DNA of 64,000 bases from Marsupella aquatica (GCA_973895155.1 OZ316894.1:681968-745967); one strand, 5' to 3'; positions 24,180 to 51,700 are shown, counted from the stretch's first letter. Translations and numbers: made by a program. Notes: generated by a model from the sequence alone, not told the origin.

Positions 24180-24206
24180 TTGGATTGACTTGAAGTGCCT
24201 GAAACA

Positions 24207-27200: not shown

Positions 27201-28048
27201 GACGTCAAGCAATGGCCTGTCCTGCTGAATTTGCTTCCATTCCTTTTGGAGTGTGGTTCAGGGATACAATACACAAGGCTAACCTGGATGACAATGAGGA
27301 CAAGTTGTTGTTGACTGCAATTTCTTTTCCACCAAGCCAGAAGGCTTTGTCTTACAATTCAATGAAGGCTTTTGGGAACCATTACAGAGTGATGCGCTGC
27401 AAAGATAGGAATGGTGAATGGCGTGAGATGTCCACTCTCAGGGACACTGATTGTCAAGGATATGCTACATTCAATTCAGGGGTGGCCACAACTTTCCATG
27501 AGCAGATCAGGGAAGAAACTGGAGTGAATTTGGCCAAGCTTACATATGTGGGGGTTATGACACAGATACTTGTGCTTGACTATGGACCTCTGTTACATTC
27601 TGAACCAGCCATAATCTTGAAGGCAAAGTGGGTGCGGTCTAAGTGGGGAGAGCAGAGGTCTAATCCATCAATGAAACATGACGAGACTGGCCTATGGCTT
27701 GCTAATTTTAATATGCCTTATCCCTCAGCTGAGAAATTAGATTATGTCTTGCCCAGTCAGATTGAGCAGGTTTTCTTTTACCCAAACACAGCCAGGGCCT
27801 CTTGGAGACATGTCCTCCATAAGGAAGGGAGGTCTCGACGAGTTGTTGAGGGTATAAATGACCTTGAGTTTAATGATCTTGTGGATCGTCATGAGGCTGT
27901 TGAGGCTGAGCTTGTTGCAGCAGCTAACAGACGAGTGCCCTTGGATGAAGGAGAAATTGTAGTTTTTCAGGAGATGGCAGTGTTGACAAGAAGTGATAGT
28001 GATGATGATGATGTCTGGGAAGATGAAGAAGATTCAGATGAAGAGTGA
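24207..28048 (+). pseudogene. CACTA TnpD-type transposase (3 exons) with one premature stop
   Basis: Motifs: transposase-associated CPCYIC..KHL, LALDGVNPF, YNLPPW, LDPMHTEKN, GLKSHDYH, RWMYPIER. Predicted introns are 25974-26087 and 26993-27117. There is an in-frame TAG at 24720-24722. Confidence 0.93.
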
Positions 28049-28121
28049 GAATGTGCCTCTTGGGGCAGGAAGTACTGATTGCTCTTTGGTGATAGTGTTT
28101 TTTATGCAGTTTTGAATTGAA

Positions 28122-31096
28122 ATGCATGATCGGTCTGGGGTGAAAGGTTCTGAGAATGCCTATGAGGCACAGAGGAATAAGAACATAGCAGCCAACCAAG
28201 CTATACTTGACCAGTTTGTAGGAACTGCTGCAAGAGATTTAAAGTATGTACTCTATCCCTATATAGTTTTGAATTTATGCCTTGACTTTATTACTAATTA
28301 ATGGTTCACACTCATGACATTGCCAGGGTGATTGCAGTTTACAGGGTGAGGCAAGGGTCAAGCGTCTATCTAAGTTGTCAAAGAAGACTGAACAGAATCA
28401 GCCGTCTATAGCAAAGCGTAGGAGTTCACGATTACTTGGCAGGCACCTGGAGAAAATCATGGAGAGTGACAACAGTGGGAGTGATGAGTCTGAAAAATCA
28501 GCTGACACAAATTATGGGGCAGGTTTAAGTGATGATCACGAATCAGATGGTGTTCAAGAGCTACGTAAGGTAAGAGAAGACTCACTATCATTTTCTACTT
28601 CACTTGAAGCTAATTGCATTAATTGTCCAATTTCTGTATATCTCAATCTGGTGCTACTGTTACTAATTACTTGAATGTGCACACTGTTATCCTCAGGCTC
28701 CCCGAAAGTCAGGGCTTAAATATTATGTGGATCCTAGGACAAAGGAAGTGAGTGTGTGTAAGTAATTTATTCATTACCTCACTTGCCATGAACTTGTTTT
28801 TGACTTGCCAAGTGAATCCTGAGTTCAGAGTTCTCACAGTTGCAGATTGATTGTCACAAGTTACATTAATGTTTGACTTGCTAATAGAATCTCTTTGGTT
28901 GGTTGTGGTAGTGACACCCTTGCCTAGAGCATCTGCTCGTGATCTGGATGATGGAATTGTCACAGAAAGATCAGAACAGACACACGTACGACAATCATCT
29001 CGTGCTGCAAAGAAACAATGGGAAGAGAACACAAGCGAGCGTCGCAAGTTGGGCATGAAGAAAGCTGCAATCACTGTATGTTGCTTGTGAAAGATCATGC
29101 TTGTGATTTATTGTTTGTCCTTTGTTATTGGTCTCTTATGATGCATTGTGTGCAGATTTGGAACAATGATGTTGATCCCAATGATCCATATCGGGCACGT
29201 TGGGGAGATGATCTTCGTGCTGTGTGTATGGGTAAACTGAATCCTTCTATCCGTGAGATTAAGAAGCAAGACTCAGGGGTTCTTCTTCATGTTTATGTTG
29301 TGTTGGAGAACGATTGGGCATATGTACAGGGGACTCTGTCAATGAAGAAGTTCAGGTCTCATTGTTCAGCAGTAATGAAAGCACAGCGAGCAAGACTCCA
29401 CAAACATTTTCAGGAAGGTGGAAGACGCTTGGACAAGAAGCCCCCTGAGAATGTGAAGCCTGAACATTGGAAGGCATTGTGTGAGTGGTGGCTGTCTCCA
29501 GAAGGGATGTCTAGCATTGACAAGATGAAGTATGCAAGATCTAAAGTCATTAATCCATCAAGGGTTGGACGAGGTGGCTACCGTGGGAAGGAGTCTGACT
29601 TTGTAAGTATACAAGATTCATTTACAGTTATTATGAATGTTTGTAAACAACAAGTAGGCTTACAGCATGTGTCTTCCTTTGTTTTAGCAATTGGTATGCA
29701 AAGAAGCAAGAAGTTTCATTCTAATATGTATTGTTTGGTTTCATTGCTCAGAAGAGAAAAAGAGGGGAAAGTCCACCTCTGTCTGAGCTACGCTCAAAAG
29801 ATGATAGATTTGGAGTATCAAGTGTGAGATCTGTCACAGGACAGACCACACCATCTCATCGGAGAGGCAGAAAGTCAATTGTGAGTATTAGTTCACAAGT
29901 CCAATTTTTGATTTCCAAATTGCCAAGTCTAGGTGATATCCACTAACTTTTGTATGATTGTTCAATGGTTGCAGACACCAGGTTCCAGGGCTATGATGGG
30001 AGACGAGGAAGGACGTGATGAGCATATGTTGAGTACAATTGTGAATGCAATAAGTACAGGGATGAGTATTGGGTTTAAGCAAATGTTAACTGTTTTGACA
30101 AAACCTAGCCTAAGTCAAGATGTGGAAGAAACCAGAACTGTCCCAGTTGGGCCGGGACAGTCTTCAATGCCCTCACGAATGAGTTCAGTTCCGAAAAGTC
30201 ATTCAGGCCGTAGTACTTCAGCTGTGAAACTAGACTTTTTGGTGGACTTGACCAAAGAAGGTATGTTCTTTATAGAGGACAGTTAAAGTATGTGTAATCA
30301 AGCATGCATGACTTGGATTAGTGAATGTTTTCTAATGTCTTGAAATGTTAATGGGCAGTTGAAGATGATCAGGGGATTGATCTCAATGCTGCTGTGGAAT
30401 ACAATTATGACCCAGTGATTGTGAAGCAAGAGATCAATGAAGAAACAGAGGTGGTATACAGTTCGCCTGCGCAGCATGATCAAGCAGGCAAAGATAAGGT
30501 TGGAATACCATCTAAACCCTAAACTTTGTACTATTAATGTGTTCATTATCCCATGAATTTGTAATGTGAACCTGGTAGGGCATGCTTATGTAAGTTGTCT
30601 CACCCTAATCTATTTTGTAGGAGATAATAGAAGCTTTGACACCTGAAGTTGTTTTGACAAAGTCATCTGAAGAAGCCATTGTTACAGAGTTTTCAAAGTC
30701 GATCCCTTCACCTTTTGTCTTGAAGGTGAGCAAAAGCAAATGATTGCTTTCAATACATGTCCTATTCGTTTATTTGCTGTAACTTGTCATTAACAAGTCT
30801 AAGTAATGAAATGGCTGTGTTATGTTGTTGATGTGTGACAGTTTAAAGTAGGAGACATGGTGAAATTGAAATCACCAGTGGATCAGCAGGTGATTGCTAT
30901 TGCCAGAATCGATGGAGTATGTGGACTTGATCGATATTATGACAACCCAGTTCCTACTGGCTTCTTGATTGTCAAAGCTGTTTCTATTTTGAATGGAGAT
31001 GCACCTCTCCAAGAAAAGCACCCAGAAGGCTTGGTAGCCCTCAAACATGTGAAGGGGCACCCATTTTTGTGGAGGCAGAAGTTAATGAGGAAGTAG
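28122..31096 (+). CDS. CACTA TnpA/Ptta-like multi-exon gene (exon structure not fully resolved)
   Basis: Contains AYEAQRNKNIAANQAIL, a Transposase_24-like segment PPENVKPEHWKALCEWW...SRVGRGGY, and C-terminal VKLKSP...PFLW. Many GT-AG boundaries are visible. Confidence 0.7.
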
Positions 31097-32340: not shown

Positions 32341-32547
32341 TATTTAAGACCGTTGGGTTTGAAACCGACGGTGACATAAACCACTCATACATTTTGAGTA
32401 CTTGTTATAAACGACTTCATGCTCAATACGACTAGTTGTCTAAAGCGACTGACATTAGTGCACTCAAACCATTGAGTTGTAAATTGTCCGTTATCACTCT
32501 GAAACAAGTGAATTAGGTAGTGATAAAATCCCGATTTCCTTCTAGTG

Positions 32548-32906
32548 GTAGTTGGATTGAATTTGACAAGAAGATCCATAAATTTGTTTTAGGAGATAGA
32601 TCTCACCCAGAAGCGAAGGCAATATATACTGAGCTCAATAAATTGACTGAAAACCTGAAGGTTGAAGGCTACATTCCGGATACTCAACTTGCGTTGCATG
32701 ATATGAATGAGAAGGATAAAGACCTAGCTCTTTGCTCTCATAGTGAGAAGTTGGCTATTGCTTACGGACTTATGCACATACCTCAGGGGAAGCCAATTTG
32801 AGTATGGAAGAACCTTCGGGTGTGTTCAGATTGCCATACTGCAACCAAGTTTATCTCTAAGGTGACTGGACACGAGATTGTAGCCAGCGATACCAATCGC
32901 TTTCAC
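32548..32906 (+). pseudogene. PPR-DYW paralog, piece 2 (DYW core)
   Basis: Reads SWIEFDKKIHKFVLGDRSHPE...HSEKLAIAYGL...[13 protein letters not shown]...DTNRFH, with a premature TGA at 32799-32801. Confidence 0.93.
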
Positions 32907-33758
32907 GAGGTTTTTCCCCATGACAGGAAACAGAAAATAGTAACAATCATAACAGGAAAAATAGAGGAACAAAACAGGAGATTTGGTACTAGCATACACA
33001 AAAGATGACATAATTTTGGACAAAAAAGGAGGCCAATTTCAATAGGAACTCCAATATGTTTAGAGTTCTCTACAGTAATTATGGAAAGACAAGTTTTACT
33101 AGCGCCGAGCGCTAACCAAGAGTTTGTTGCCGTTCAAAACAACATTAACAAAATGTCCGTTCAACGTATCGTCGAATGATCAAAATTCCAATAAACCATG
33201 CAGATTCTCCCTTCCTACGATGAACTGGAGTTCTCCGACATTCAAAATTGGCTGGCTGGTAAGACCGAATACATCGGATGAAGCTTAAAGATTGTTTTGT
33301 CAGAGGGCTTTCCATTTGACAGGAACCCGATTCCAGTAACAGGAAACAACCAATTTCAACAATAAAAGAGCCACTAATAGTATTCGCAACATATTTGGAG
33401 GACACAAGAAAAAGAAGAGATGAAAGACACAATTTTATAGAGGCGGGTTTACATAATTGTGGAGGAGAACATAACATATAATAGTAGCGCCAGGCGCTAG
33501 CGACACGCGCTACTTGAAAAAGAAATTACATTGATATCCAGAAGGTAATAAAAGTCCATAACCTTCAAGAAAAAGAAATAACCCTAATAACATACTCAAA
33601 AAACCTAATGCGATAATAAAACGAAAGGAGCAATAAAGCTAACTCGGCCAAACCGGAGCCCCCATTCAAAAAGATGACATGAATCAAACTCATGAACGAC
33701 TCCAACAATGAGATGAAAGCTAGCACCAGGCGCTAGTGTCAAAGAAGAAATCCACTCT

Positions 33759-34229
33759 CTAGGAAGTAGAAGACATGCAGTCGTCGTCCAATCCAGCTTT
33801 GAACCTATCCTCATCCTGTCGAAACCCATCCTCTCGATCCAGAAAAAAATGAGGTCCGGGATAGCGATTCCGACTCCGGTCGTTCGGGATGTTCGAATCT
33901 GAAAAGTTCACACGTCCGGTGTCTGCTTGGATGTCTCTGAAAAAAGCTGTCCTTTCCACCCGATACACATTGGAAGGATCCGGGTCGTGAACAGAGAACC
34001 TCTCTCGGAAAGGAAGTGGAGGCGAAGGATCACGCGATGGAAGGTGTCCAGTTCTGTGGCTAATACCCTCATCCGGGGCCAGCCACAACCTGTTCCTCTC
34101 GGTCGACGTCTCTGGGCACTGCGTAAAAGATGGAGTCAAATCTAAACCCGGATCTCTAATCGACCTCCAAACCATCGCCTTTGGCGGATTGCAGCTCTCC
34201 AATTTTGCTATTTGCTTTCCCTTATCCAT
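33759..34229 (-). CDS. Small MULE cargo ORF of unknown function (starts MDKGKQIAK)
   Basis: Open frame from the ATG at 34229, just downstream of a 39-bp tandem repeat. No domain was recognised. Confidence 0.35.
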   Translation of the reverse strand: MDKGKQIAKLESCNPPKAMVWRSIRDPGLDLTPSFTQCPETSTERNRLWLAPDEGISHRTGHLPSRDPSPPLPFRERFSVHDPDPSNVYRVERTAFFRDIQADTGRVNFSDSNIPNDRSRNRYPGPHFFLDREDGFRQDEDRFKAGLDDDCMSSTS

Positions 34230-34270
34230 TGAGTTGATGGAAACAACGGATGCAAAACTCAGGGAGAAGA

Positions 34271-34387
34271 GAAGAGGTGAGTCCGGGCAGACCAGAAATG
34301 AAACGAAGGGAAGAGGTGAGTCTGGGCAGTGCACAAATGAAACGAAGGGAAGAGGTGAGTCAGCGCCTCACAGAAATGAAAGGGAGA
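34271..34387. repeat. 39-bp tandem repeat, 3 copies
   Basis: GAAGAGGTGAGTC occurs at 34271, 34310 and 34349. Confidence 0.85.
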
Positions 34388-35079
34388 AATGTGTTTAGGG
34401 TTGAACAAACACGAAGTTGAACAATCCCGAAGTTGAACAAACACTACACTTTGAGAGAGTCCAAATGATCATATCAACCACAAACAAAAATATGTACAGA
34501 CTGAAGGTATAATTATTCATCGTACAACTGTATGAGTACATGCATTTCTGATATCTGCACAAATATGCACTCAGGAAAGAGACTCCCGGTGCGTTTATCT
34601 CCTTTAAAGTCTCAGATCCGAACACCCTGTTTAATAGCGTCGGGCGCTAGTACAAGGTTCCAAAGAAAACATTAGAAATTCCCACTCAACCTATTCCAAG
34701 TCAGAAGACTCGGACTCGCTACTGCCAGACCTATCTGTAGACTCAGCTTCATCATCTATAAATTTGCTTCTAGGTCCATCGTTGAGTAAAGGCTGATGGA
34801 TGAATTTCCTATCTGAACCTCTTCTTAACTTAAGCCCTTACTCTCCCAAGTAAGTGTTCTCCTCTGTTCTTCTTTGCGTGCAGCATATTCTGCATACGAG
34901 GGCAACACGAAAGGCTTCTGAGGAGAAACGAGAACTTTTCTCGAGTATTTCCTCCGAAGATTAAAACGTTCTTGAAGATTCCACTCCGATCTGGAAGAGG
35001 AACGGAACCATATTAGAATTGAAAATGAAAATGGGACAGTAACAGAATCGATAATGTAAAGTGAAGTAGCTTACGGGCA

Positions 35080-38000
35080 TTACTCAGAAGAATCCGAATC
35101 TTCTATTTCTTCCGTCGTATGCCTCTCCTTCTCATCCCCTTCATTTTCCTCTCCTTGTCCTCCTGAAGCAGCATCTCCAACAGCATCTCCATCCTCTTCA
35201 TCTTCAGAGTCAAAATTTAAGACAGAGCGAACTTTATCTTTTTGTTTTCTTCCCACATCTTTAGCGGGAGATGAGGAACTGACATCCTTTGGAATCAATA
35301 AATCCATCCATGTCTTTTCCGCAATCTCAACAAACTCTTTTTGGTTTTCTATACCAAGAATAAAACGACCACAATAGTCACCAGCAACAAATGTACTTTC
35401 CGAACCCACAGTCCAGTCCATGACAATGTCACCCGGCCGAGTGATTAACTCTAACACAGATTGCATGAACCCAACGGACAAGCGTCCATTGCCAGCAAAC
35501 GCTGCTGAAGGAGTTGGATCCTTCCTCACACTCGGGAGACCAATAAGGTTAGTGATAGAAGGATCTTCAGTTGCAGAGAGGGGTCGAAACTTGGGGTCCT
35601 TTGGAACCTTAACCTTTGACGAAACACGACTGAATAGATCCAATCTCAATGTGAAAACCTGTGAAATCCCAACAAACTCCATTGTTAAGATGTCGACGAT
35701 CCAACCAGAAAATCATTTAAATCACGGCATAACAATGAATTTTGGATAGCGCCAGGTGCTAACAAAGAATATCCCCTTAATCAAAGGGTATATGAAAACA
35801 TTTTTAGCTAGCGCTTGGCGCTAACAAAGGACAGCACGAAGAGTGAGAGAATTTACCTGGCAATCACTTCGGGCCATGTACATTGGAACTCCCATAACCA
35901 CGTTCAGGGTTTTCACACACTGAAACTTTTGAGACTCCTGGCTCGCGCCGATGACCTGCGAGATCTGATCATACTTGCCGGTATGGAAAATGGCCAATAT
36001 ACCATCATCTGCTAGAAAGGGGTCCATTGCGCAAAAGAATGAACCAACAATTCTGTGATCTGGGGAATTCCATTTTGGAGACTTCTTCTCTAAAAGGGAT
36101 GGGCGCAGTCCAGTTGGGAGGTAAACGAATCCAGCATCAACTCCAAATGATCTTATCTTTCCTCCTCTTATGACTCCTTTCTCCCTTAGACCAAGCAAGA
36201 CTAGGTCTTCACCCACTTCTCCACATTTGACACCCAAGCCGGTTTCTGCTCTTTCATGAACACACTCTCAAAGAAGTCCATTACGCTGGACTCAACAAAA
36301 ACATGCCTAGAAGTCTTAGACTTGAACTGTCCAACATCTCGTTGAACACCAGTAGAAGCGACCGAATCCCGAGAGGAAAATCCATGATCCAAAGATTTCT
36401 TTTTCTTTTTCTTCGTGCTGGTGGCATCTGCAGGTCGCACCATCTTCTCCGTGTTGGGAGGAGTCTGTTCATCAGGGATATCTTGTTCCCCCGTATCAGC
36501 TTCAGAGACTCCAGGAGTGACAGTCGTCTTTGCATCTTGTGTTTCTTCTCCATCCGATTTCCGTCCACCTAGAAAAAGATACAAAAGTTTCCAAGATTAC
36601 GGTCCACATAACACCAGCGTCGGGCGCTAACCAAACTGCCCCAAAAATCAACCGATAAATAGACAACTTGATCTGCAGCGCTCATCAAAAGTCACCGACA
36701 TAATCAAGCTGGTGGAGAGAAAATACAGAATGCCAATGGAAAATAACACCAGCGCCGGGCGCTAACCAAACTGCACAAAAATCAAGCAATAAAGGGACAC
36801 CAACATCTGTGGCGCTAAACAAAAAGTCACCTAAATATCCAAACTAGTGAAGGGAAAATACGGAATGCCAATGAAAAATAGAAGAATCTCACGTTTCTTC
36901 CCGGATCTCGTTGATGGGCTGGTTACTCCAGTGTCTACTTTTGCTTTCGCCCGGGGTTTTCGACTCCTGTCTACATGCAAAACTTCTGTTTCGCAATGTT
37001 TCTGCAGCTCGCTCACCGAGGCATCTACATCTTTCGATAAACCTTGTTTCATTTTAGAGAGAACTTTTCAAGGCACTAAAGACTTTGATAATTTCAGAAA
37101 TGCATCCTTTTCAGCTTCATCGAAAGGGGTGTCCCACTTATCTATGTCAAGATACCATGGACAGTGGGTTATCTCCCACAATGAAATGTCACGTGGTGGA
37201 ACGTCCCCTTCGGCAGGGTGCATTGAGTAAACTTCGCTAGAAGCATCCCCCTCTAGAACGGACCATTTCTGGAATGCAGGAGGGTAAGCCCAAAAATACT
37301 CTGGAGAACTGGTCTCCATCGCCATGTAGAAGCGATACAGATATCTCTTGGCTCGCTTCTGGTTGCGAATGGTATAGTCTTCCTTGTCTCCGTACTTGGA
37401 CTGCCAAATTGTGCTAAAAAACTTCGCCTTCACTGTTTCACCGTATGTCTTGAAATCATTGGTGATGTTCAAGACCAAAGCTTCAAATGTCTCCACTCCT
37501 CCTAGCGTCAGACGATCAGCAGGTAGGATCGACTGGACTTGCGAAAGAGATGTCTGTAACATTGCAATTGCAATTCCTTCCACCAAACTCCACATGTGCC
37601 ATGTATGACACCACTGTTTAACAGGGTCATCATTCACACTCGGGGGATGGTAAAATTGTTTTTTGAGCTTGGGTGTACAGTGAGCGACAAGAAGAGTACA
37701 GCGCAGTTGTGGATCCAAGTAGGAGACAGCAGTGAATAGACGCGCGCGGTCCATTGTACATACTACAGAGTCCGGCTTCTTTTCTCGTTTCTTCCTCTCC
37801 GTAAGAATGTACATTTCTGCACAAGTTGACAGAAAATCACCAAACTCTGGGCTTATCAGGGGGTAATCTTGGATGTCTTTATGCTCCACTCCTTCGTTGC
37901 CTCCTTCATCATGGCAGCATACCGCTTACCAGTCTCTTCAGATGACCACGGGCGACCTTGACTTGTCGCAACAGCCAAGTCAAGCTTAAATTGAAGTGAA

Positions 38001-39040
38001 TACGACTTAATCTTGTTTTCACACAAGATGTAAACCAATGCTTCCAATGGCATCTGCTTGGTATACCAAGACCCCTTTCTTGTTTTGGCACGAATAGTTT
38101 GAAATCGCTTGAAGCTTCCGGGGTCGATGATCGGCTTGTAGGCCTCCAAGTCATGAGTTAAAATCCGATTGATTCTATCAGCATCGAGAATCCACAATGG
38201 TTCCACCACAGCTTGCCCTAACCTGTAAGATATAATGGCAAATATTAGCGCCTGGCGCTAACTAACCTTGCAAAAATCAAGCGCAATTGACCGAATTCAA
38301 TAGCGTTTATGCAACTTGAGGAATACTTACTGGTTCACCATGTGCATAGCCGCTTCAAGCTCAACTAGAGAACCTCGATCTCCCTTAAAAACAGTGCATT
38401 GAACACGCGGATGGTACTTGATATTGTCTGGATTCTCATTTGTTACTTGGGTCCACGAGTAGAGTCGATGATTCCCGTCAAAAACACAGAACATCTTATC
38501 CTTCAGAATGTGGAAATCTGGATCAGTAGCACATTCTGCTTCAAACAAGTCGTTCTGGGCAACCCAAACAGCATCCCAGGTCTCCCGAATTTCAGGCGTG
38601 CAGAATTGAACAACTCCTTCTGAATCCGTGGGCTGGACGTAAAACCGCATCCCAATTGAAGAGTTGTACCCAGAGCTCCGAAACGAATCCTTGAGCTTAT
38701 CGATAGATGCACTATTTTTCTGTAAGGTCCAAACGATTTCCATGTGAACAAGCCGACAAAGAGGGATACGCGGCGGCTCTTTCTTCTCCCCTCTGAAATC
38801 GACTCCAAACGACATTGCATATTTCTCGATCACAGCATCCATGGACAAGACTTCCTCGCCCCCGTCCTCCATCGCAAAATCTCCGTATGACTCCATGATG
38901 CCTCGTTTTGGCTTTGGAATCGCCTGACTAATGTTTCGCAAAGAGTTCGACGCAGACGAACGAGTGACTCTCCGAGTATAAACTAATCCGGAGAATGAGG
39001 ACTCGGATGTTTCAGAATGGCCAGGAGAATGATTCTCCAT
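35080..39040 (-). pseudogene. MULE cargo: spliced gene encoding an N-terminal ParB/Srx-like domain and a C-terminal beta-class N4C/N6A DNA-methyltransferase fold
   Basis: ParB-like motif VFDGNHR. MTase-like motifs VDAGFVYLPTG...FLADDGILAIF and LELITRPGDIVMDWTVGSESTFVAGDYCGRFILGIE. Phase-compatible introns at 38330-38223, 36892-36569 and 35856-35659. One stop (37068) and about two frameshifts in this copy. Confidence 0.75.
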
Positions 39041-40274
39041 GTTTGTTTAAGATGCACACACATGGGGAACCCGCACTGCAACGTGCTTCTTGCGTGATGC
39101 AACGTTTCTTGTGGTGCTATACCGATATGGACGAATGATTGACAACGATCCTAAACGTGCGCAGAGGTCGTTCTAACGAGCAAGGAAGACACTATCGCGA
39201 AAAGATCTTATCTGATATACCCTGTGGCAGACCAACATGTATCACAAGTACACATCGAAAAGCACGAGCATCCAAAAGTAGACCTACTAAAGGTTGACAC
39301 TTGTCACATTTTAACTAGTTTATAGGTACTCGTGAATATATTTATCCAGGAATTCGTTATAAATTGTAACGATAAACGGTCAAAGTTACCGTTTAAAAAG
39401 ACCGTTTATGTCAGTATTCTACTTTGATCTAATATTAGCGCCTGGCGCTATTATTATGCTAGACTAAAATATATCTTAAAATGAAAGATTTTAATAATAG
39501 TGCCTGGCGCTAGTAACATTGTACTAAAAAATCATGCAAATGATTGGACTGAAGTGAGAAAGATTTTGTAATAAACGGCTTCTATTTCTATAAAGTTTAT
39601 GAAAGTGCCAGGCGCTATTTTTCTTTTAGTCTCAAATAGGGCTCAAATGTGTAGATTTCAATAATAGCGCCCGACGCTAGTAACGAGACACCTCAAAATG
39701 GTAGATGTTTGGACAAAAAATGTGTAAGTTTCTATAAATAATGTACGAGTACATCTTGACATTTTTATGAATTTTATGATAGCGCCTGGCGCTATTATTA
39801 TGATAGCTTCTACTCGATCTCAAATGGATCGATTTTAATATTAGCAGAGGGTAATATTGTCGTCTGACATAAATAAGGGTCTATTTCCAAGGAAACCCGA
39901 TATATTTCCAAGGAAACCCGATACCTGTCGTAGGATGTTAACCTGTGTGAGTAACCAAAATGGCCAATGATCTTTGCTTTTGTTGTTCATTTTTTGGGCT
40001 CTTTCAGATGTGGAAAATGCTAGCGCCTGGCGCTACTATATTACCCCTTTGGTTACAACGTCAAAACCATTAATTCAACAGTAACTATCCGCTGAATTGA
40101 TGGTTTTGTCATTTCTTGAACGGTAAGAAAATCCGTACCCAACGGATCCTATAACCGCTCGACGGCTCTTTCCGTTTGAGACTTGGATTTAGAAGAAACC
40201 CTCAACCATACAAACTAGCTTCATTTTACCATGTATCATTATTTTATGTAGTCGGTTATCTTTGGGGAGTTAGA

Positions 40275-43200
40275 ATGTCTCGCATTATTGGAATAATGTG
40301 TCCGAATACAGGTGACGTTGTGATGATCCCTGTGTTGATTTCCGAAACCAAGAAACGTGTTAGTGATAATTACCTGTGTGGAAGATTTGGGGTGACGAGA
40401 AAACATATTTTGAGTATCAGAACTTTGAACGATGGGCCCGCTCATTTTGATACTGAAGCGGAGGACGTTGTTTGGAATCTCAAATATGGCGTGGAGTACT
40501 TGATTTTCATTCAACTAAGGGACATCGTTCATGTCAAGGTGGAGACGCATCAGGTCGCTCACGATGTGATTGACCTTACGTCCGACGCTGAATGCTCTGA
40601 GGGTTCTCCACCAATCTCAAAGGGTGGTGAGGTCAATAAGGAGGGCGGAAGTACCAGTTTGTTGATGCCCCAGATACCCCCCGTATTGATTGCGTCGGAG
40701 GAGTCTGATGATGGAGACACTCTAACTCGTCCTGTTCTGGTTGTGTACAGAAGAAGCGCACTTGATGCCTTGTTGAAGTCAACTGGACAAAGTGAGTTAT
40801 CGCGCTTTGTTAGGTCCGAGGCATTCATTCACAAACAGGTTGAATGCTTACCTGTAGAGTACAATGGGAATACCATATTTGAGCTTCCACCTGTTGAAGG
40901 TGTTGGCTCGAAAGGGGATCGTCTGCGAAACATGGATTGATGCAAGGACTGCTACCTCTGGACTAGAATCCTTCCTACTTCTGCTAATGTCGTTCCGAAG
41001 AAGATGTGGGAGTTTGGGAAAGTAAGTTGTAGTGGTTCTCTCGAATGCCGAAATAGAGCATGTGAGTTTTACACCAGGACTCAAGTCAGAAACTGTAATG
41101 GATGGGATGGGACCCCCAAGCTCTCTGGTCAGCATTGTCCTGGGAGGTTTATCGATGCTGGAGGAATTGTTTGTCGCTATTGCCTTCAAGTTCCATTTTG
41201 TGTTGAGTCTTGTCCAGCAAAAATGTTTTATATGTACCCGCAAGTTTTGATCGAAAATGACACTGCAAAACACATGTCACGACTTGCAATCCATATGGGA
41301 GTGCACAACCATCCATGTCGGAAGGTCTGGTCTAGAAGTGCTGAGAAAATAGCAATAGAAGAAATACGGAGACAGCATAAGAAGTCTCCTTCTTCTACAC
41401 CGTGCGTTTTGAAAAATGAGATCACTGGATCTTTAATGGATGCCGTAGGTGAGTCTGTGGATGACATTTCAAAGCTAGAAGAATCAGAAATCTGGAAATC
41501 ACTTATGCTCGTTTCAACGCCTCAGAAGTTTTCTGCGTTATTTAAGAGCGTTCGCAAAGATCAGGTTGGTCGAGGTGATTTGGAATATCTGGTTCGCATG
41601 CAGAAGAATGTTACGTTTCCTTTTCTCCAAAGATATCTTCTTCCTGGGCAGGGCTGTAAAGGTGATAGAGCGCATATTTTCAAAATGACTATCAAAGGTC
41701 ATGGATCGGGAGTAGATTTATTGCGTCAGATGAAGAAAGGGGGGCCTCTACAAGGAGCATGGGTGAGCTTTGACATGATGAAAAGGATGTCGAAAGAATG
41801 GAGTACTTTTAGTGCACATGTGTATGACCATAACTATCGAGCTTTGTGCACAATATTTACTTGTGAACTCAAAGCAGAGGACACTGCATCGCTTGAGAAA
41901 GCTTGGAGGTTGATGATCGAAGTCGCTTTGGAGAACGGTTTAAACGGTGTGGAAATCCATGGTTTCATGGCGGATAATGCTCAGGCGGGATGGATAGCGG
42001 TTAGGAATGTCTTCTTTGACGGCCATCCAAACCCGGAGAGAGAGCGATCGGATGCATTCCACTTTTATCAGTCTTTGCATCGGCACTCTATCGAAGGAGT
42101 ACTTGAAGAAAAACGTGTTGAACATTGAATCCTTTGGGACAAGTTGCGGAATGCCGCTTCATTTGTGGAAGCCTACAGGGTATCACGAGAGATTGATTCA
42201 TGGTGGAGATCTGGAAATTGTATTCCTGGGAAACTTAGAATGTTGCAAGGATGGATCGCTTGGTGGGTTGTGAGGTGGCGTCAGTGGGGAAATTTCATAC
42301 GTTTGGTGAGTCAATGTATACTAGCGCCTGGCGCTAGTATTAATATCCCTTTTCTAATTGTGATATTTACCGATGTTTTTGCCAGCGCCGGGCGCTAACG
42401 TACAAATAGCTTGATAGCTTCTTCAATCTTCACAATCATCATGAAAACATTCATACCTTTCGTCCGCCCATTTTGAAGTTCTACTTTTTTTATTTGATAT
42501 ATTGTACTGAATTTGACAAAACTCTTTTTCAGAGCAAAAGTGCACTTGAAGGGGGGATGATTCCCAATTGCACTGGTTCTGAAGCTGTTCACGGAATCAT
42601 GAAAGCATGGCAGGGAAAGAAAACAGTTGGTTTGTTCGAAGGATGTAAGACCGATCACAACAGAGCAATCTCACAAATAGCAGCCTATACAGCATATCGT
42701 GAAGGGCTCCATCAGGGTACCCGTCCAACAGTGTTTGAATTGGCTTTTCGTTCGGCTGACCAAGCAGGGTCCCCGAAACTCTTCGAAGAAGCCTCTAATA
42801 TGTTACTCGCAAATGCAGCAGAATTTGATTTGGAGAGGGATTCTCCGTTGAATGGGGATTTTGTGACAAAGTCTATGAAAAGAAAAGGTCCAACGACCGG
42901 GAATGTCTCTCCACAAGACTCCCATCGACATGACACGGTTCTCATAACTATGCCAAACACCCAAGGTTGCAAGAGGAGAAATTTGACCTCAGCCGAGTTT
43001 GAGCACATTCTGATACTTGGAACTCCTCCTTCGAATCCAGTTATCGATTTGTCTGAAAGTGGCTCTCCAGTTTCCCATCATGTCACTCAATCTTCCGAAG
43101 TTCCAGAAAGTGTTCCGAACACCACTCCATTCATTCTTGTAGACACTTCGCTTTTTGAAGAGGACGTTGTACCCAGGTCGTGGCATTTGCGGAGAGTTTC

Positions 43201-44026
43201 CAGACACGGTGCTGGACCACAGTGTAATGGGACGTTGTCTGGAAGTTGTGATCGAGATGAGTGTCGTAATTGAATTAAGAAGGTCGGATATCCTTCAAAT
43301 GCAGGGGTTGTCGGAATAGTCGTCAAAGGTTACCGCTTATTCAGAGGTGAACACCATCCAGAGCTTGTTTGGTTCTGCCCCACTCGTGATTGCTGGAAGA
43401 GCCACCCTCGTCGAGGTATTGTGAACCTCCCTACTTGCCCAAACTTTTTGCCAGTACAGAAAGGCACTCATCTTTCAAGTCTGGAGTTGAATTTCCTTCA
43501 CGAGCAGGGCATTGAAGTCTCGAGAGGAGGTGCTGTTTCACGTTGTCCTTCTCCATTTGAACTGAGAATCAACATTGACGTTTTCCCTGAAAAGATCGAT
43601 CTTGCACAAGTCAACATCCATTTTCAAACGAGAAACGGGCATGCGATGAGCTCCAGATCAAATCTCACTCAGGAATATCATAAAAGGATTGAATCAGCAA
43701 CAAAAGAAACAATGACTTTGATCAAAACTATGGAAGTTTCATCGGGAAATTCATACCAAAAACGATTCCAGATACGCACACATGCACATTTATGAACTGC
43801 AAATACTTACTGGGTGCAGATTTGCATTTTCCCTTGTTGCTCTTGTGAAGATTTCTTTCGTCGACATTCTCGAGGGAAACCTTTCATGCCATGTAAACAC
43901 TTGTATTGGGTTTACAAAGTTATCTGCAAGCTTGATCTTGTGGACAATATCCTCCCAAGCCAACCGATTCTTACCATTGCGGAACTACATTATATTCTAG
44001 CAAGGCAGAATGCTTATGGTTTATAG
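40275..44026 (+). pseudogene. Mutator-type DDE transposase with GCM/WRKY-like zinc region and C-terminal SWIM
   Basis: Motifs: CSGSLECRNRAC...HMGVHNHP; VSFDMMKR...FMADNAQA...DAFHFYQS...GSEAVHG; SWIM CSCEDF...PCKHLYWVY. Intron at about 42306-42532. In-frame TGAs at 40938, 42126 and 43271, and a frameshift near 43790. Confidence 0.82.
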
Positions 44027-44672
44027 GAAGGCTTAGTATTCTAGTTTACGGTCAACGGGTATGTAGGACTTGTCGTTTCGTAACGGTAACTTTGTTTTAG
44101 TTAGCGCCCGGCGCTAGTAAACAACATTTGGTTTCTTTTCAACACGGCTCAATGTTTTGTGGGTTGCTCAAAACGCTTAATTTGTTTTTACAATTTTACG
44201 GATGTGTAATTTTCATTGTACGGGTAACAGAGATTTCTTTGTATTCAATCGTCACTTGGACTTCAGTTTTGTTAGCGCCCGGCGCTAGACTTCATTTCCT
44301 TACTTGGTTTCAGTTTGTAGTTTCCAGGTCTGAACGTGTGGATTTCTTTCGCATGCATTCTCAAGGATGACCTTTTCTTGCCTTAGAAACCGTTATCCTC
44401 TGATCATTCCGGTAGATGGTGTGCGGGTATTTTGTTAATGATATTTTTTAACGGTATCAAACGCTTGGTTAGGACTAAGCGCTAGTAAAGGCATCTTCCG
44501 ATAATTGTCGTTTTCCCCATCTTTTTGAGTTGATGTTGAATTTTACCTCTTTGGTTTGGTCCAAAATTAAGCCGTTTTTTGTCAATGATAGTACCAATTC
44601 TCCTGTTTTGTTCAACTATTTTTCCTGCTATGATCATCACTGTTTCCTGTTTCCTGTCACGGAGGTCGGGCC

Positions 44673-44723
44673 CGCTTTCACCATTTCAAAGATGGGATAT
44701 GTTCTTGTGGCGATTACTGGTGA
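44673..44723 (+). pseudogene. PPR-DYW paralog, piece 3 (C-terminus)
   Basis: Reads RFHHFKDGICSCGDYW*. The downstream CCAGATTGAAAG...GAAAGTGAC matches the 3' flank of the intact gene. Confidence 0.93.
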
Positions 44724-47700
44724 CCAGATTGAAAGTTGGTTTGAAAGTGACATGAAAGAAGAACTCACTCATCCCCATTTGTCCTTATGTTCCAATCTGT
44801 CTTGTTCAAGAAATGAGTGATGAAGCATGCTTCATTAGACAGATTCGCCAAACAGAGATGATCCCTCTAAATTCACACTATATCAAGGTCAAGTGAAAAA
44901 TAATTTATGCACATATAGAGTAAATTTTGAAAAGATTCCAATAGGCAGATGGGAGAGGGGATACATACAAAGGAACCCTACTCGTCCATTAATTTCAAAA
45001 GAATGTCGCAAGTGGCAGCATTATTTGCATTGGTTTTTCTGACCAGTGGTCCTAATTTGAAGGCTCTATAAGAACCTAATGTCTTGCTAAATATGTGATA
45101 ATTGTTACAACCCAAGGTTGAGTCTACCATTAACCTGGGTTAAACCTCCTCCTTTAAGTAGTTACCCTAACATCCTTAGTAACTACTGTGATGCCTAGCC
45201 AGGAATCACTAGGCCAGTTTAAATAGTAAAATCAGGAGTGTACCCTGGAAACACATTAGTATGGTAACAAAAAACTGGAAAATATAAACAATTAAGGGTG
45301 ACTATGGAACCCGAGCCGAGGCCGGAAGTAAGGACGCTGGGGGAGGGAACACGATTAGGGTTAGGGCGCGCTAAGTGTCAGCGGTTATGGGTAACCAACA
45401 GGAAGGAAGACCAGACAAGGGGGGGTAAGGACCGATCGCAAGGAATGGTGGCTCATTTGCAAGCACGAACTAAGCAGATGACTATGGGAGGCCAACTACT
45501 GTCAGCTGCTTAGGCAAGCACTCAGGGTGGGAGCAGATACCGACTATCAACTCAAGAAGGGTATGAGCAACGTCAATCAAGCTGATCATTTTTGTGGATG
45601 CCTGTTCGAACGGGCAACTGAGTACATTGGGACCTACAAAGATGAAGAATTTGAGAGAGCAGCTCGAGAACGGCAGGAGCTCGCTCGACTGTGGGAGCTG
45701 CAGAAGTCTGCCTTCTTAGGAGGAGAACTCATCAACGCTGAATTCTTGTGGACACCGACTGGCAACAAACTAGACGACCTTCTGTTTTGCGAGAACAAAA
45801 TCATCGGCATCCGAGAAGCCATCAACTGCTGCAACAACATACATTGGGAGTTGAAGGGTAGCACGGAGGGGTGGATAAAGGCAACCGTGCTGGGAGAAAC
45901 ATCCACGGCAGCCGCTATGAAGAGGAAAGGGAACAGCAACGAAGAGGCCACCCCTGTGAAAAGAACGAGGTCGACGGCACCCAAGAAGCCAGCAGAGTAG
46001 GGAAGCAGGAGGCAGGGAGAAGCCGAAGAAGAGGAGGTCATTCCAACAAGAGATGACACCTAGAAAGGCTGGGCGGCGACCCTTCCCAAGGAAGTGCAAC
46101 TACACTTTGCACGTGAAGAGGATGCATGCTTTACGGCTATGCAGACTCGGAAGTACCAGGGTTTCATAACCGGATCCGGCTTGGAAGCCTTCGTGAAATT
46201 ACCATGGCTGAAACCGGAGGTGCCGGATTCAGACTTACTAGAATTTGTGGGATCATGGGAGCCCGAGACCAATTGGGTGTATGGGAAGGATTTCTATCTC
46301 ACTCCCCGGGTGATTGCCAAAGCGTTTGGCTTGCCAATGGGCAATAAGACCAAAGTAGATACCAGGAAGACCTTGCCAGACAAGGAGTTCCGGTCGTTCC
46401 CAGGGCCATCAACGAAGAATGGCTTCTTCCGAAACACCTACACCAACCCGCACATCGGAGAAATGATCGATTTCTTGCGGGTGACCATGCATTGCAACTT
46501 GCCAAGGCTAGAGATCGGCAAGGCACAGGTCTACGTGGCGGAGAGGCCAAACCCAAGCCGGGACTACAACGGGTACCTCCTCACCCAACTGAAGAAGATC
46601 TCGAAGGAGGAACAGCAGGTGATCGGCATGGGAAGCGTGTCTCAGCTTGGCTATCACATGCCGCTGTTGTGCCGGTATGCCCGAAGTCAAATCTTTGCCC
46701 CGGTACTTCCCCTGCAGGCAAGGGCACCAGAATAGGTTTCGGAACAGAGGCCAGCAGCAGAGAAACCCAACCAGCCCGACAGTCCTACAATCGAGCAGGT
46801 GTTTAGGCCAAGGACGAAAGACTTGCCGATGCAGCAACCAGGCATGCAGAATTTGCTGAAATTGCTGGAGAAGGAAAAGAGAACGGCAACGACACCGATA
46901 CATAACACTGCTCCAGAAGTCGGCCTAAGCCGACTTACAAGGGAAAACCCCTTTATCGGAGCCAAGCAGAGAAGGAGGCCGGAACACGAGCCGGGGGTTT
47001 GAATGTATGTGGGATCAAGCCCCGAATCTGAGGCAGAGCAGCCTAAAGCTCCTATTCACGGTAAACAGAGGGAGAAGACAGCCTGGAAGCCAGAGGAGGA
47101 ACCAGGACCCGTGAGCTATGAGGCCGTGTTCACGGCAAGACCAGGGGAGCAGCAGGGGGAGCAGGTAGTCCAAGCCGTGGAGGAGGCGGTGGAGGACTAC
47201 GGCAATGATAACTCCGGCTACGGGTCAGACCATCATGTTCCAGGAGTAAGGACCTGTGGCCGGTTTATCCCCACTCTTCCAGCAGTAGTTCGAGGGGACC
47301 CCACCCAGCAGAGCAGCCCCAAGTCTCCCCCACCAGATGTCACTCCCCCGAGCTTTGACGGAATAAACAGACGGCACAGGAATTTCAGGAGCAACTCAGG
47401 GAGGAAGAGAAGGCAGCCCTGGCTAGGGAGAAAGATTTACAAGGAGGAGAATGGCCAGAGGACATCAGACGGCTTGCAGAAAAATGAAGCAACCCTCCAG
47501 CCACGATAGAAGAAATCTGAAAGGTGGCTTGGGAAGAAAGGCCGTGGTGGTTGATGCCGATGACTTCTACTCACTCCACCTATATGCTAAAGAAAGAGCC
47601 ATGGAGTACGGGGAGATGTGTGGGGAACTTGCGCTCAACATCTTTGGGGAGGAGTTGGAGCAGGGACCCTTTTTCCAGAGGGAGATATTGGAAAAATGCC

Positions 47701-48739
47701 GATTAGAAGAAGTGGTGGCTTTGGAGAGAAGCAAGAAGGACGAGGTCATCCGATGGCTTAGGGTGAAGGTAGCCGAGGCAGAGGACCAGAAGGCGGCCAA
47801 GAAAGCCCAATATGAGCTACAAATTAAGCGGCATGAGCTAAACATCATGCAGGGGCAATTGGATACCGCTCAGTCTGATAATCGGATTATCAAGGATAAA
47901 CTGACTCGGACCCAAGGAGAGTTGGCCGATGCGGTCAAGGAAAGGGAAAAGTGGAAGCAGGAGCTGAGGGGCGTAGAGGAGGCCCACATAGCCGCCAACA
48001 GCCAGGCCATGGCGGAGACCCAGAGAAGGGAGAGGGCGTTGAAGGGGGAGCTCGAGGATATCCGCGGAGCCCTTGAGCAAAAGGAGGCCAAGTTAGGGAA
48101 ATCCTATCAAGGGATTATTGTGCTGCAGCAGGAGCTTGCATCCCTGTCGGCCGGCTTCAAGCCGCAGTATTTAAGTGCTTGGCTTCATCAGGTCCAACTC
48201 CAATTGGGGCAACCAAGTTGCCAGGAGTAGTACTGGCCGAAGGACAAGCCGCGACACTCACACCGGTGCCGGAAGTAAGTGGCAAGGGGAAGGGACCAGC
48301 TGCCGAACCAGGGAAGAAGAAGAAGCGGAAACCTTCTGGGTCAGGGAGTAATGCGGCTTCTCAAGCCGTCATGACCAAGGAGGTAAACCCATCACCAACC
48401 TCAGGCAGGGTCACGACAAAGGATCCAACTGCCTTAGAAGGCGGGGATGGCAAAGCCAAGGCCAGGACACTCAGTGATGAAGCCGGGGTACCGGATCCAC
48501 CACTAGAGCATGTCGGGGAGGCCGTAGCCGTATTAGGGGCCATGGCTGATGCTGAGGCCGAAGCCGATGCTGGACCCAGTCAGGCCACGGGTAAGTTGAC
48601 TGGGTCTGGGGCAGGTAATCTGTCAGAGGACAGACCTACGGCAGTGGCTGCGAAGGAAGCGTTGGGGGCGTCCATTGAGGACCAGCCACCACTGCCATGA
48701 CGGTGGTGGGGGGCCGCTCCTTTTAAGGAGGGCGGACAT

Positions 48740-51700
48740 TGTGGTTCGTCCCATGGCTCCCCAAACCCAAGAAACCCCCCTGCGCAAGCCGATTCCCGCA
48801 GGTTTCGTCCTTGGCGAGGCCGTTTCCACGGCTTGGCGGCATGGGACGCTGCTAACCTCCTCCTACTGCTACTATTAACATTTTACACACATATACTAGA
48901 CAGATCCTTCATCGGGTCATGAGATACGTAGCCGGCCTAATCTAGGCCTTCCCTTGTCTTCCCCTCTCCTTCTGGTTAGGTATATTTAGATTCCGTCGCC
49001 GGATTGATCCCCAATTGGCTTGGTTAAGCCGCTAAGACCTCTCTCAGCTCGACACATCCAACTCTCACTCCCTTGCTTACTTCCCTTCTCTCTATTAGTT
49101 GATGTGGGCACTCTTCAAACAAGTTAATGCGACACACAAATAGCAAAATGACTCCTTCTGACTAAGTTATACCATGCACTTGCCATACAAACAGTACATC
49201 TCATACACAAGCTCTGCGAACTAAGCCGTGAGGCCAACTCTATTCAGCTCTTAGGCATGAGGAAACATGAATATACACAAGGGTCACTGTATAACTAACC
49301 GAGAGCTTCTCTTACTACTAGATCCCAGCCCTGCTGGTGCAACTAAAAACTTGATAAAGAAGAGGCCCTGGACTCCCCGCTGCCCAGGTATTTATCCTGG
49401 CAGTGGATCTGTCCAATTCCTTGCAGTGTAAGCTTAATCTATCCTACCTGTAATCTACCTAACTGTAACCTACCTATGTACAGCGAGGCAGGAGCACAAG
49501 TGTTGCTCCTACCAGTGGATCCGCCATCCCACTAATCTAAGTGTCAGGGCCGTCTCCTGGTCCTGATCCTAAGCCTAAACTTGGAGATCCGAGCCCGCCC
49601 TGCCCACTCACGCCTCCTACCTCCACGTCCGCCCTTCCTAAAAGGAACGGCGCCCTTGCACCATCACAACACCGGTGGTGGATCCTCAATGGACGCCCCC
49701 AATGCTTCTCCCGCAGCCACTGCCGTCGGTCCGTCCTCTGACAGATTACCTGCCCCAGACCGAGTCAACTCTTCTTCGGCCTGACTGGGTCCACCCTCGG
49801 CTTCGGCCTCAGCATCGGCCACGACCTCTAATATGGCTACGGCCTCCTCGGCCTACTCTAGTGGTGGGTCTGGTACACCGACTTCATTACTGAGCATTTT
49901 GGCTTGGGCCGTGCCCTCCCCGCCTACTAGGGTAATTGGATTTTCTGCCGTGACCCTGCCTGTTGTTGGTGTTGGGTTTACCTCCTTGGTCACAATGGCT
50001 TGAGAAGCCGCATTACTCCCTGACCCATAAGGTTTCTGCTTCTTCTTCCCTATGTCGGCAGCTGGTCCCTTCCCTTTGCCACCTACCTCCGGCACCGGGG
50101 CGTGTGTATCGGCTTGTCCTTCGGCCAGTACCACTCCTGGTAACGGGGTTCCCACAATTGGAGTTGGAATAGATGAAGCTAAGCATTTGAATATTGCGGC
50201 CTGTTTCTTTAGCCGCTCCATTTGGTTGTCGGCCCGCCGCTGTAAGTTCTCCATCTTCCGCGTGCGTTCCTCTAACTCCTCCTGCACTTCGTCCAGGTCC
50301 TTCCGTACCGCCTGCAGCTCCTTCTTGGCCTCCTCCAATTCCTTATGGGCTTCCTCCAATTCCTTATGGGCTTCCTCCAATTCCTTCTAGGCTTCCTCCA
50401 ATTCCTTCTTTAAGGTAGCCCTTTCCTCCTGGGTTGCTCTTAGCTCCTTGTCAAGCTCCGTTACGACCTCAGACTCCATTTTATTCATCTTGGCATAGTC
50501 TGGTCGAGCTGGTCGTCCTTCTCACGAAGGTCGGCCTTGAAGCTGGCCGTCAGGGATGCAAGCTCCTGCTGTAGCATAATAATCCCTTGATAGGATTTTC
50601 CTAACTCGGCCTCCTTCTGCTCCAGGGCTCCGCGGATATCCTCGAGTTCCCCCTTCAACGCTCTCTCCCTTCTTTGAGTCTCCGCCATGGCCCGGTTGTT
50701 GGCAGCTATGTGGGCCTCCTTTGCGTCTCTCAGCTCTTGCTTCCACTTCTCCCTCTCTTTGACCGCCTCGGCCAACTCTCCTTGGGTCTGAGTCAGTTTA
50801 TCCTTGATAATCTGATTATCAGACTGCGCGGTATCCAACTGCCCCTGCATGATGTTTAGCTCATGCCGTTTAATCGGTAGCTCATCTTGGGCTCTCTCGA
50901 CCGGCTTTAGGTCTTCCATCTCAGCTTCCATCTCCCTAAGCTGCCGGATGACCTCGTCCTTCTTGCTTCTCTCCAAAGCCACCGCTTCTTCTAATCGGTG
51001 CTTCTCCAACATCTCCCTCTGGAAAAAAAGGTCCCTGCTCCAACTCCTCCCCAAAGATGCTGAGCGCAAGTTCCCCACACATCTCCCCGTACTCCATGGC
51101 TCTATTTTTAGCATAGGTGGAGTAAGTAGAAGTCATCGGCATCAACCACCGCGGCCTTTGTTCCCAAGCCGCCTTGCGGATTTCTTCTATGGTGGCAAGA
51201 GGGTTGCTTCTTTTTTTGGCAAGCCGCCTGATGTCCTCCGGCCAATCTCCTCCTGGTAAATCTTTCTCCCTAGCAAGGGCTGCCTTCTCTTCCTCCCTGA
51301 GTCGCTCCTGAAACTCTTGTGCCGTCTGCTTTATGCCGTCAAAGCTCGGGGGAGCGACATCTGGTGGGGGAGACTCGGGGCTACTCTACTGGGTGGGGTC
51401 CCCTCGAACTACTCTTGGAAGCATGGGGATAAACGGGTTACAGGTCCTTACTCCTGGAACATGATGATCCGACCCATAGTCGGAGTTATCATTGTTGTAA
51501 TCCTCCACCGCCTCTTCCACTGCTTGGACTCCCGGCTTCCCCCTCTGTTCCCCTGGTCTTGCCGTGAAAACAGCCTCACAGATCACGGGCCCTGGTTCCT
51601 CCTCTGGCTTCTTGGCTGTCTTCTCCCTTTGCTTTCCGCGGGCAGGAGCCTTAGGCTGCTCTGCCTCCGATTTGGGGCTGGAGGCTCCCACATACATTCG

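Follow-up and report, generated by a model that had tools for sequence, protein, structure and literature searches.

Palindromic sites in the non-coding DNA of the element

A short palindrome recurs in the non-coding DNA of a Mutator-like DNA transposon of Marsupella aquatica, which raises the question of what protein reads it and to what effect. The transposon was analyzed within a stretch of 64 kb (GCA_973895155.1 OZ316894.1:681968-745967), referred to below as the window; counts of the palindrome refer to the window. It carries two divergent genes, one for a transposase and one for an accessory (cargo) protein with a ParB/Srx-like N-terminal domain, a helical middle domain, and a C-terminal domain resembling beta-class amino-methyltransferases. 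An earlier note on this DNA had proposed that the cargo protein and the palindromes form a cognate pair, an anti-silencing system like that of the VANC proteins. The dimer-type sites, the VANC-like layout, the ParB/Srx-like domain and a different palindrome in a relative speak in favor of that proposal. The cargo protein is the probable binder, and we tentatively read the palindromes as loading sites for its dimer, predicted to keep the element unsilenced.

The window was searched for TAGCGCCNGGCGCTA with up to 2 mismatches. This gave 20 matches, all between 33100 and 44287 (8 perfect, 9 with one mismatch, and 3 with two), while shuffled sequences gave an expectation of 0.03 (maximum 1 in 100 shuffles). 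Raising the limit to 3 mismatches produced no further match in the 64 kb, and the palindrome was not found in the other 52 kb of the window. Since the match at 33498, which carries transversions, overlaps that at 33485, the number of separate sites is 19. None of the 19 lies in a predicted exon, though about 65% of the element is exonic (p ~2.5e-9). A more cautious test counted only 12 independent sites and allowed for the TAG, which bars one of three reading frames; it gave p 7e-5. The earlier note had described about 19 palindromes confined to the transposon and absent from predicted exons, one of them extended to 23 bp (42318-42340) and six of them clustered between the divergent genes (39436-40035), and all of this was borne out. 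Its statement that every cargo intron holds the motif needs correction: three introns do, but the gene has four, and the short fourth one (34991-35074) is without a site.

Two further observations concern the placement of the sites (Table 1). In another copy of the family, the distance between the palindrome and the acceptor of intron 1 is unchanged, although the 21 intervening letters differ (window 38223-38260; joint 38225 to 33101). A second word, AATATCCCYTT, was seen 17-19 bp, centre to centre, from three palindromes (35768, 40040 and 42342) and in a joint of the public sequencing run X3; it may be a partner site or the trace of a copied module.

Architecture, spacing and conservation of the sites

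Comparison of the sites extended the palindrome to about 25 bp (WWNRH-TAGCGCC-N-GGCGCTA-DYNWW). Read outward, GGCGCTA is followed in the 38 half-sites by D (36/38), a pyrimidine at position 9 (37/38), any base, A or T at position 11 (37/38), and again W (34/38), and half-site positions 2 (A) and 3 (G) are invariant (38/38). The centre base is unconstrained (T in 7 sites, G in 5, A in 4, C in 3). No co-variation between left and right flanks was found among the sites (p=0.63). Therefore, selection appears to act on the letters, as in reading by a protein, and not on pairing, and a hairpin or cruciform role was rejected on the same ground. The outer TAGC..GCTA resembles the KorB operator, which we took as a coincidence.

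The element is matched by thousands of short contigs of public runs at 80-100% identity, and it therefore belongs to a multi-copy family. All 30 bins of the element are covered by contigs in three of the four runs; contig depth over the element is not a measure of copy number. In the window, 4 of the 10 neighbor distances below 300 bp are 61-62 bp, or six turns of the helix. One of these pairs lies in cargo intron 3, two lie between the genes, and one lies in the transposase intron. The pair spacers are of three unrelated types (9-17 of 46-47 letters alike); one pair is duplicated, with 31/47 spacer letters alike. In other copies, 5 of the 12 joints with intervening letters, among the joints listed, link site to site, at 62, 62, 62, 51 and 32 plus 32 bp, and a further site-to-site distance of 116 bp was recorded. 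One more distance of 62 bp, between two related modules, was excluded from the phasing test. In that test, with 10.4 bp per turn, 8 of 10 distinct distances deviated by no more than 0.17 turn from a whole number of turns (p=0.015). General phasing is suggestive; the recurrence of the fixed 62-bp pair is the firmer of the two results. The half-site consensus without pairing, the 62-bp pairs and the apparent conservation described below support the view that the sites behave like binding sites of a dimeric protein.

Variants among family copies were compared over 39410-39830, where five sites lie. Only 3 of the 40 variant places listed (of 47) fall in these sites, compared with 7.1 expected. Two of the three return a site to the consensus: 39501, where the entire covering depth of run X2 shows the variant, and 39674. 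The third falls in the already decayed site 39603. With the two consensus-restoring places set aside, the deficit has p=0.005, which is moderate evidence that the sites are better conserved than their flanks among copies. The deviations within the sites were also inspected. The earlier note had described them all as C>T or G>A. This holds for the nine at positions 2-14 but not for position 1, where four sites differ (T>C three times, T>A once). Each of the nine internal deviations affects a cytosine in a CG, CHG or CCG context (9/122, against 0/68 at CHH; p=0.03), and this is the pattern expected of decay after methylation of host 5-methylcytosine (5mC) type.

It could be argued that local duplication or small insertions gave rise to the palindromes without any selection, or that they act as hairpins. 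Some sites are indeed duplicated (36615/36750; 39436-39679; the copies in the terminal inverted repeats, TIRs), and the palindrome array of a relative, L001, is a tandem repeat. The flanks of most sites are, however, unrelated, and the spacing is fixed despite unrelated spacers. The variant deficit, the lack of flank pairing and the one-base centre likewise speak against these readings, which we consider highly improbable.

The cargo protein

Fold searches were carried out with a predicted model of a liverwort homolog of the cargo protein (mean pLDDT 65, with high values where the model is folded). In both searches the top matches were ParB, Noc, KorB, PadC and sulfiredoxin (best Z 7.7, root-mean-square deviation 2.6, 93 aligned). 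The N-terminal domain is thus predicted to adopt a ParB/Srx fold with the Box II signature GxxR, present as a conserved GNHR. Among 150 homologs, G144 is conserved in 131/139, N145 in 136/139, R147 in 112/136, and N191 in 92/94; we infer that GNHR and the downstream Asn correspond to Box II and Box III. Word-based searches with the ParB and methyltransferase exons gave no match among longer proteins, while a full HMMER scan did, and relatives of the ParB-like exon form 211 clusters at 50% identity. Those homologs that carry a species name belong to liverworts and a fern; Riccia sorocarpa, Calypogeia fissa and Adiantum nelumboides are among the species with homologs. The helical middle domain, folded alone, gave no clear match to a known fold, which does not imply that its fold is new.

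The C-terminal domain matched PF01555 (E 2.5e-7), DpnA and phage methyltransferases, and it contains the motif X-I-II-III region of the beta class. The catalytic motif IV has the consensus (D/S/N)-P-P-(Y/F/W), and the window protein has YLPT in its place. Five homologs show this motif, as DMPS, DLPT, DLPT, DMPT and DVPF. Because the aromatic residue is absent in four of these five and in the window, the domain is probably inactive or atypical. This bears on the suggestion that CCNGG, which the earlier note named as the core of the palindrome and set beside the targets of bacterial N4C-methyltransferases (CCWGG and CCSGG), is a catalytic target, where the cargo protein would write N4-methylcytosine (4mC) and block host 5mC. 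The match to beta-class amino-methyltransferases would suit such a role, and 4mC enzymes of the same class are reported to work in Marchantia (Marchantia 4mC preprint). The motif IV of the Marchantia enzyme is, however, TSPPY (Marchantia 4mC preprint), unlike the residues found here, and the conserved site, at about 25 bp, has five times the length of the 5-bp CCNGG. The idea is weak for these two reasons, and catalytic targets are a very improbable explanation of the sites. Fusions of ParB to the same methyltransferase class are described as common in phages, and the nucleotide preference of ParB proteins as unpredictable from sequence (PMC12704722).

Related elements and their motifs

One metagenome scan yielded 6 loci, of which two (L001 and L002) are clear relatives. 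The ParB part of L001 is 59% identical to that of the window cargo protein. The L001 intron after the ParB exon, which matches a window intron, contains 15 copies of RAGCYYNNRRGCTY (0.6 expected), largely with a 20-bp period. The earlier note had asked that motif and protein be compared across related families, and a different palindrome in the same intron was what we found, in one relative and as a tandem array. This fits a turnover of motifs by family, seen in one case. The window palindrome is absent from all 8 loci examined, and the window in turn has no exact L001-type word. Within L001 422-998, the arrangement of RRGCYY half-sites shifts along the intron from 9+11/12-bp to 8+12-bp, so that odd- and even-centred palindromes coexist.

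L002 is 28% identical; about 100 bp of its intron are visible, and that stretch holds no array. L004 and L005, both decayed and distantly related, have neither the window motif nor a transposase match. L003, L006 and the single virus or prokaryote matches L007 and L008 are short matches to the GNHR word and were not counted as relatives. No motif pair, extended motif or transposase relative was found in virus contigs.

The transposase, the element ends and ORF3

The transposase was examined by eye. It has a Cys/His-rich N-terminal region, acidic motifs D..D..DAFH and a C-terminal CxC..CxH finger, and the latter two may correspond to the C/DxxH motif and the SWIM finger of Mutator-type DDE transposases. 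It gave no sequence match in Pfam or the PDB, and a GCM-like reading of its zinc domain found no support in these searches. The word CAGGARA is repeated near the ends of the element: 7 of its 10 copies lie within 75 bp of them (three left, four right). These end repeats are likely the transposase sites. At the right end, the segment 43982-44121, which lies inside the TIR, repeats part of the left end in inverted orientation (about 69% similar to 33095-33233) and contains the site 44102; it therefore represents a duplicated TIR segment.

The palindromes might instead be bound by the N-terminal zinc domain of the transposase, which would activate or organize its own element. Mutator-derived factors FAR1/FHY3 bind a GCGC-containing word, and the TIR sites stand at mirror positions, one per TIR. 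An Arabidopsis Mutator transposase alone is described as binding and activating cognate copies (bioRxiv 2026.08.24.746577). On the other hand, 18 of the 19 sites are internal and the right-TIR copy is decayed, the ends have their own repeated word, and peaks of the AtMu1 transposase are reported at TIRs (bioRxiv 2026.08.24.746577). The Arabidopsis AtMu1 transposase and TnpA are reported to bind termini (bioRxiv 2026.08.24.746577), and VANC21 to bind introns, intergenic and terminal non-coding DNA (PMC5735166). Judged by position, the layout of the palindromes follows the VANC pattern and not that of terminal transposase binding, and we regard the transposase as a rather unlikely binder.

A third open reading frame (ORF), ORF3, has no PHROGs or Pfam match. 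A contig of another copy can be aligned to 33753-34116 without a gap and with 59 differences. ORF3 is a possible third accessory gene of the element. ORF3, gap-free in that copy, or a host transcription factor could also be proposed as the protein that binds the palindromes. The half-site resembles the E2F core GGCGC, and transposons can amplify sites of host factors. The invariant A and G of the half-site are, however, unlike the E2F word, and the site of a host factor, unlike the palindrome, would be expected to stay the same between related elements and to recur in the other 52 kb. Moreover, ORF3 looks low in structure. Binding by ORF3 or a host factor is therefore unlikely.

Proposed function of the palindromes

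If the palindromes are loading sites of the cargo protein, its dimers would bind them, and pairs on one helical face would permit cooperative or bridged (tetramer) binding. Nucleotide binding would close a clamp, which would spread along the element as in KorB or VirB. The methyltransferase fold, mostly non-catalytic, would serve as a DNA-binding or shielding module. Occupancy would exclude or reverse host 5mC methylation, and both divergent genes would then be transcribed. Palindrome and protein would evolve together within each family, as in the VANDAL families. The steps beyond sites, layout and folds are modeled on KorB, VirB and BisD (PMC13768133) and on VANC.

Several points weigh against this reading. 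The phasing is weak when only the window is considered (p=0.04; if the 62-bp pairs enter only once, p=0.30), the joint distances come from selected lists, among the joints listed, and a single copied module might be the ancestor of the 62-bp pairs. Were all 7 remaining variant places to lie in sites, the variant deficit would vanish (p=0.59); for this reason, and because the sites may help contigs to align, the evidence of conservation is only moderate. Given the decay at CG and CHG cytosines, the sites in the window copy were probably methylated like ordinary silenced DNA. The ParB fold match has intermediate scores (Foldseek E no better than 0.47; Z <8), and no helix-turn-helix was identified after the ParB domain, where one weak DeoR match (Z 4.8) was obtained. 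The co-variation of motif and protein comes from L001 alone, whose 20-bp tandem array could be self-amplifying filler.

The cargo protein could also bind the palindromes with another effect, namely repress or dose the divergent genes, or condense the 12-kb element to join its ends for transposition. Such roles would suit the six sites clustered between the divergent genes and the in-phase pairs, which lend themselves to bridging, and KorB, the best structural match, is described as a long-range repressor (PMC13768133). However, three introns and both 3' regions also contain sites, as in the VANC pattern, and roles of this kind seem to us of low probability. We return to loading and anti-silencing by the cargo protein. 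In its widest form, which is doubtful, this reading would give non-seed land plants a large transposon family with a ParB-type nucleotide-gated sliding clamp on eukaryotic chromatin, with family-specific phased palindromes, spreading, and a dead methyltransferase that shields DNA. It would be a eukaryotic counterpart of VirB anti-silencing and a natural library of protein-site pairs.

The element and its surroundings

The 9-bp target-site duplication and the long TIRs of about 270 bp each are those of a Mutator-like element. The insertion point is the DYW-coding end of a pentatricopeptide repeat (PPR) gene, which the element splits. Contigs of runs X2 and X3 connect 32899 to 44675 and skip 11,775, that is, the element and one duplication; these contigs represent either the same locus or a paralogous PPR gene. 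Both main genes carry stops or frameshifts, and the window copy is therefore dead.

The words AACGG/CCGTT occur 16 times in the 4.1 kb of non-coding DNA of the element, compared with 33 times in 52 kb outside, which is about 6 times denser (39375-39410, 40119, 44082, 44389, 44450). They resemble the mitosis-specific activator (MSA) element bound by MYB3R factors, a hint of cell-cycle control. The window also contains ORFs resembling those of an EnSpm/CACTA-type element, and no copy of the palindrome was found within that stretch.

Table 1. Positions of the palindromic sites, the element and its genes, and the neighboring features in the window.
Feature	Position	Strand	Remarks
Palindromic site, left TIR	33100..33114	.	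1 mismatch
Perfect palindromic site	33485..33512	.	with overlapping degenerate copy at 33498
Palindromic site	33721..33735	.	immediately 3' of ORF3
Palindromic site	34635..34649	.	between cargo stop codon and ORF3
Site pair, cargo intron 3	35747..35823	.	35747 and 35809, 62 bp apart
Two sites, cargo intron 2	36615..36764	.	36615 and 36750, in 135-bp local duplication
Perfect site, cargo intron 1	38246..38260	.
Six sites between divergent genes	39436..40035	.	39436, 39498, 39603, 39665, 39780, 40021; spacings 62, 105, 62, 115, 241
Site pair, transposase intron	42322..42397	.	42322 and 42383, 61 bp apart
Two perfect sites, 3' of transposase	44102..44287	.	44102 and 44273
Decayed site, right TIR	44470..44484	.	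mirror of 33100; 4 mismatches, one half intact
Mutator-like DNA transposon	32907..44672	.	11,766 bp; 9-bp duplication on both sides; contig joins across element
Left target-site duplication	32898..32906	+	CGCTTTCAC, 9 bp
Right target-site duplication	44673..44681	+	CGCTTTCAC, 9 bp
Left TIR	32907..33182	+	~73% like right TIR
Right TIR	44401..44672	-	paired with left TIR
Cargo gene	34691..39043	-	five exons: ~39043-38331, 38222-36893, 36568-35857, 35658-35075, 34990-34691
Transposase gene	40275..44026	+	two exons, intron 42306-42532; several stops
ORF3	33759..34229	-	156 aa; starts MDKGKQ; preceded by three 39-bp repeats
DYW-type PPR gene split by element	~32500-32906 / 44682-44720	+	ORF reading
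Intact DYW-type PPR gene	5007-8816	-	1269-aa ORF; ORF reading
ORFs resembling EnSpm/CACTA-type transposase and accessory gene	24189-29827	+	by eye
Two related GC-rich ORF blocks	45482-48700 and 49853-53239	+ and -	inverted to each other; probably retroelement-derived

Comparison with known systems

ParB-type cargo genes with adjoining inverted-repeat arrays, and the idea that the protein binds its own element, are already known from algal transposons. The window element is therefore a land-plant variant with a new site architecture. What is new is the site of about 25 bp, the 62-bp pairs, the apparent conservation of the sites, the separate end repeat, and the second palindrome in a relative. 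No account of the land-plant family or of the site was found in the literature searched, with supplements and most subscription papers outside its scope. VANC is given as the only accessory protein known to bind and modify its own transposon in the list of one recent report (bioRxiv 2025.02.11.637652). With a precisely defined candidate site, a rule for its spacing and another pair of protein and motif, from plants among which tractable models exist, the present locus allows a direct test of a ParB clamp on eukaryotic chromatin, a role that has so far been proposed for the ParB-type cargo of algal transposons as binding to their own element. If the reading is true, sequence-specific anti-silencing would have a further, new route, and modules for DNA targeting could be drawn from the 211 clusters of relatives.

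In the VANDAL/VANC systems of Arabidopsis, as described in PMC5735166 and PMC10398659, a Mutator-like element with an accessory gene likewise has a short motif in introns, intergenic and terminal non-coding DNA, and related families seem to have different motifs. The enrichment in the non-coding parts of the cognate element is also observed here, within the 64-kb window. The reported VANC21 motif is, however, a 9-bp, non-palindromic one in tandem and in the same orientation, whereas the site found here is a palindrome of 15-25 bp, mostly dispersed and with 62-bp pairs. Moreover, the window element keeps long TIRs, its cargo has ParB and methyltransferase folds, and it is known from sequence alone. 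The cargo protein had no match to VANC-related Pfam families, and its folds match ParB/Srx and amino-methyltransferases instead.

Closer in protein are two algal cases. The accessory gene PAG3 of a Plavaka element in the red alga Bostrychia codes for an N-terminal ParB-like domain with the best hit 7BNR, which was also at the top in one fold search here, and inverted-repeat arrays beside the gene were proposed as its own binding sites (bioRxiv 2025.02.11.637652). In contrast, that element is of EnSpm/Plavaka type, its ParB domain is fused to a 2-oxoglutarate oxygenase with the methylase on a separate gene, and its arrays are in tandem and adjoin the gene, whereas the window sites are spread through all non-coding parts. 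The accessory protein of Sola1-1_Ec32 in Ectocarpus, compared by its description only, has about 1100 aa with ParB-like and N4C/N6A methyltransferase parts, is encoded on the strand opposite the transposase, and was proposed to bind and modify its own element (PMC12477816). It belongs, however, to a brown alga and the Sola superfamily, and the main text of that report names no binding motif.

The bacterial systems KorB, VirB, BisD and parS share the ParB/Srx fold with GxxR, palindromic sites and the role of regulators on mobile DNA (PMC13768133, PMC12704722). VirB is described as an anti-silencer, and VirB and BisD as ParB-family activators on mobile DNA (PMC13768133). In these bacterial proteins a central helix-turn-helix reads DNA, as described in the same reports; none was identified in the window cargo. 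Judged from its layout and predicted folds, the window system is VANC-like in the former and ParB in the latter, and this does not imply membership of the VANC or parS-clamp systems.

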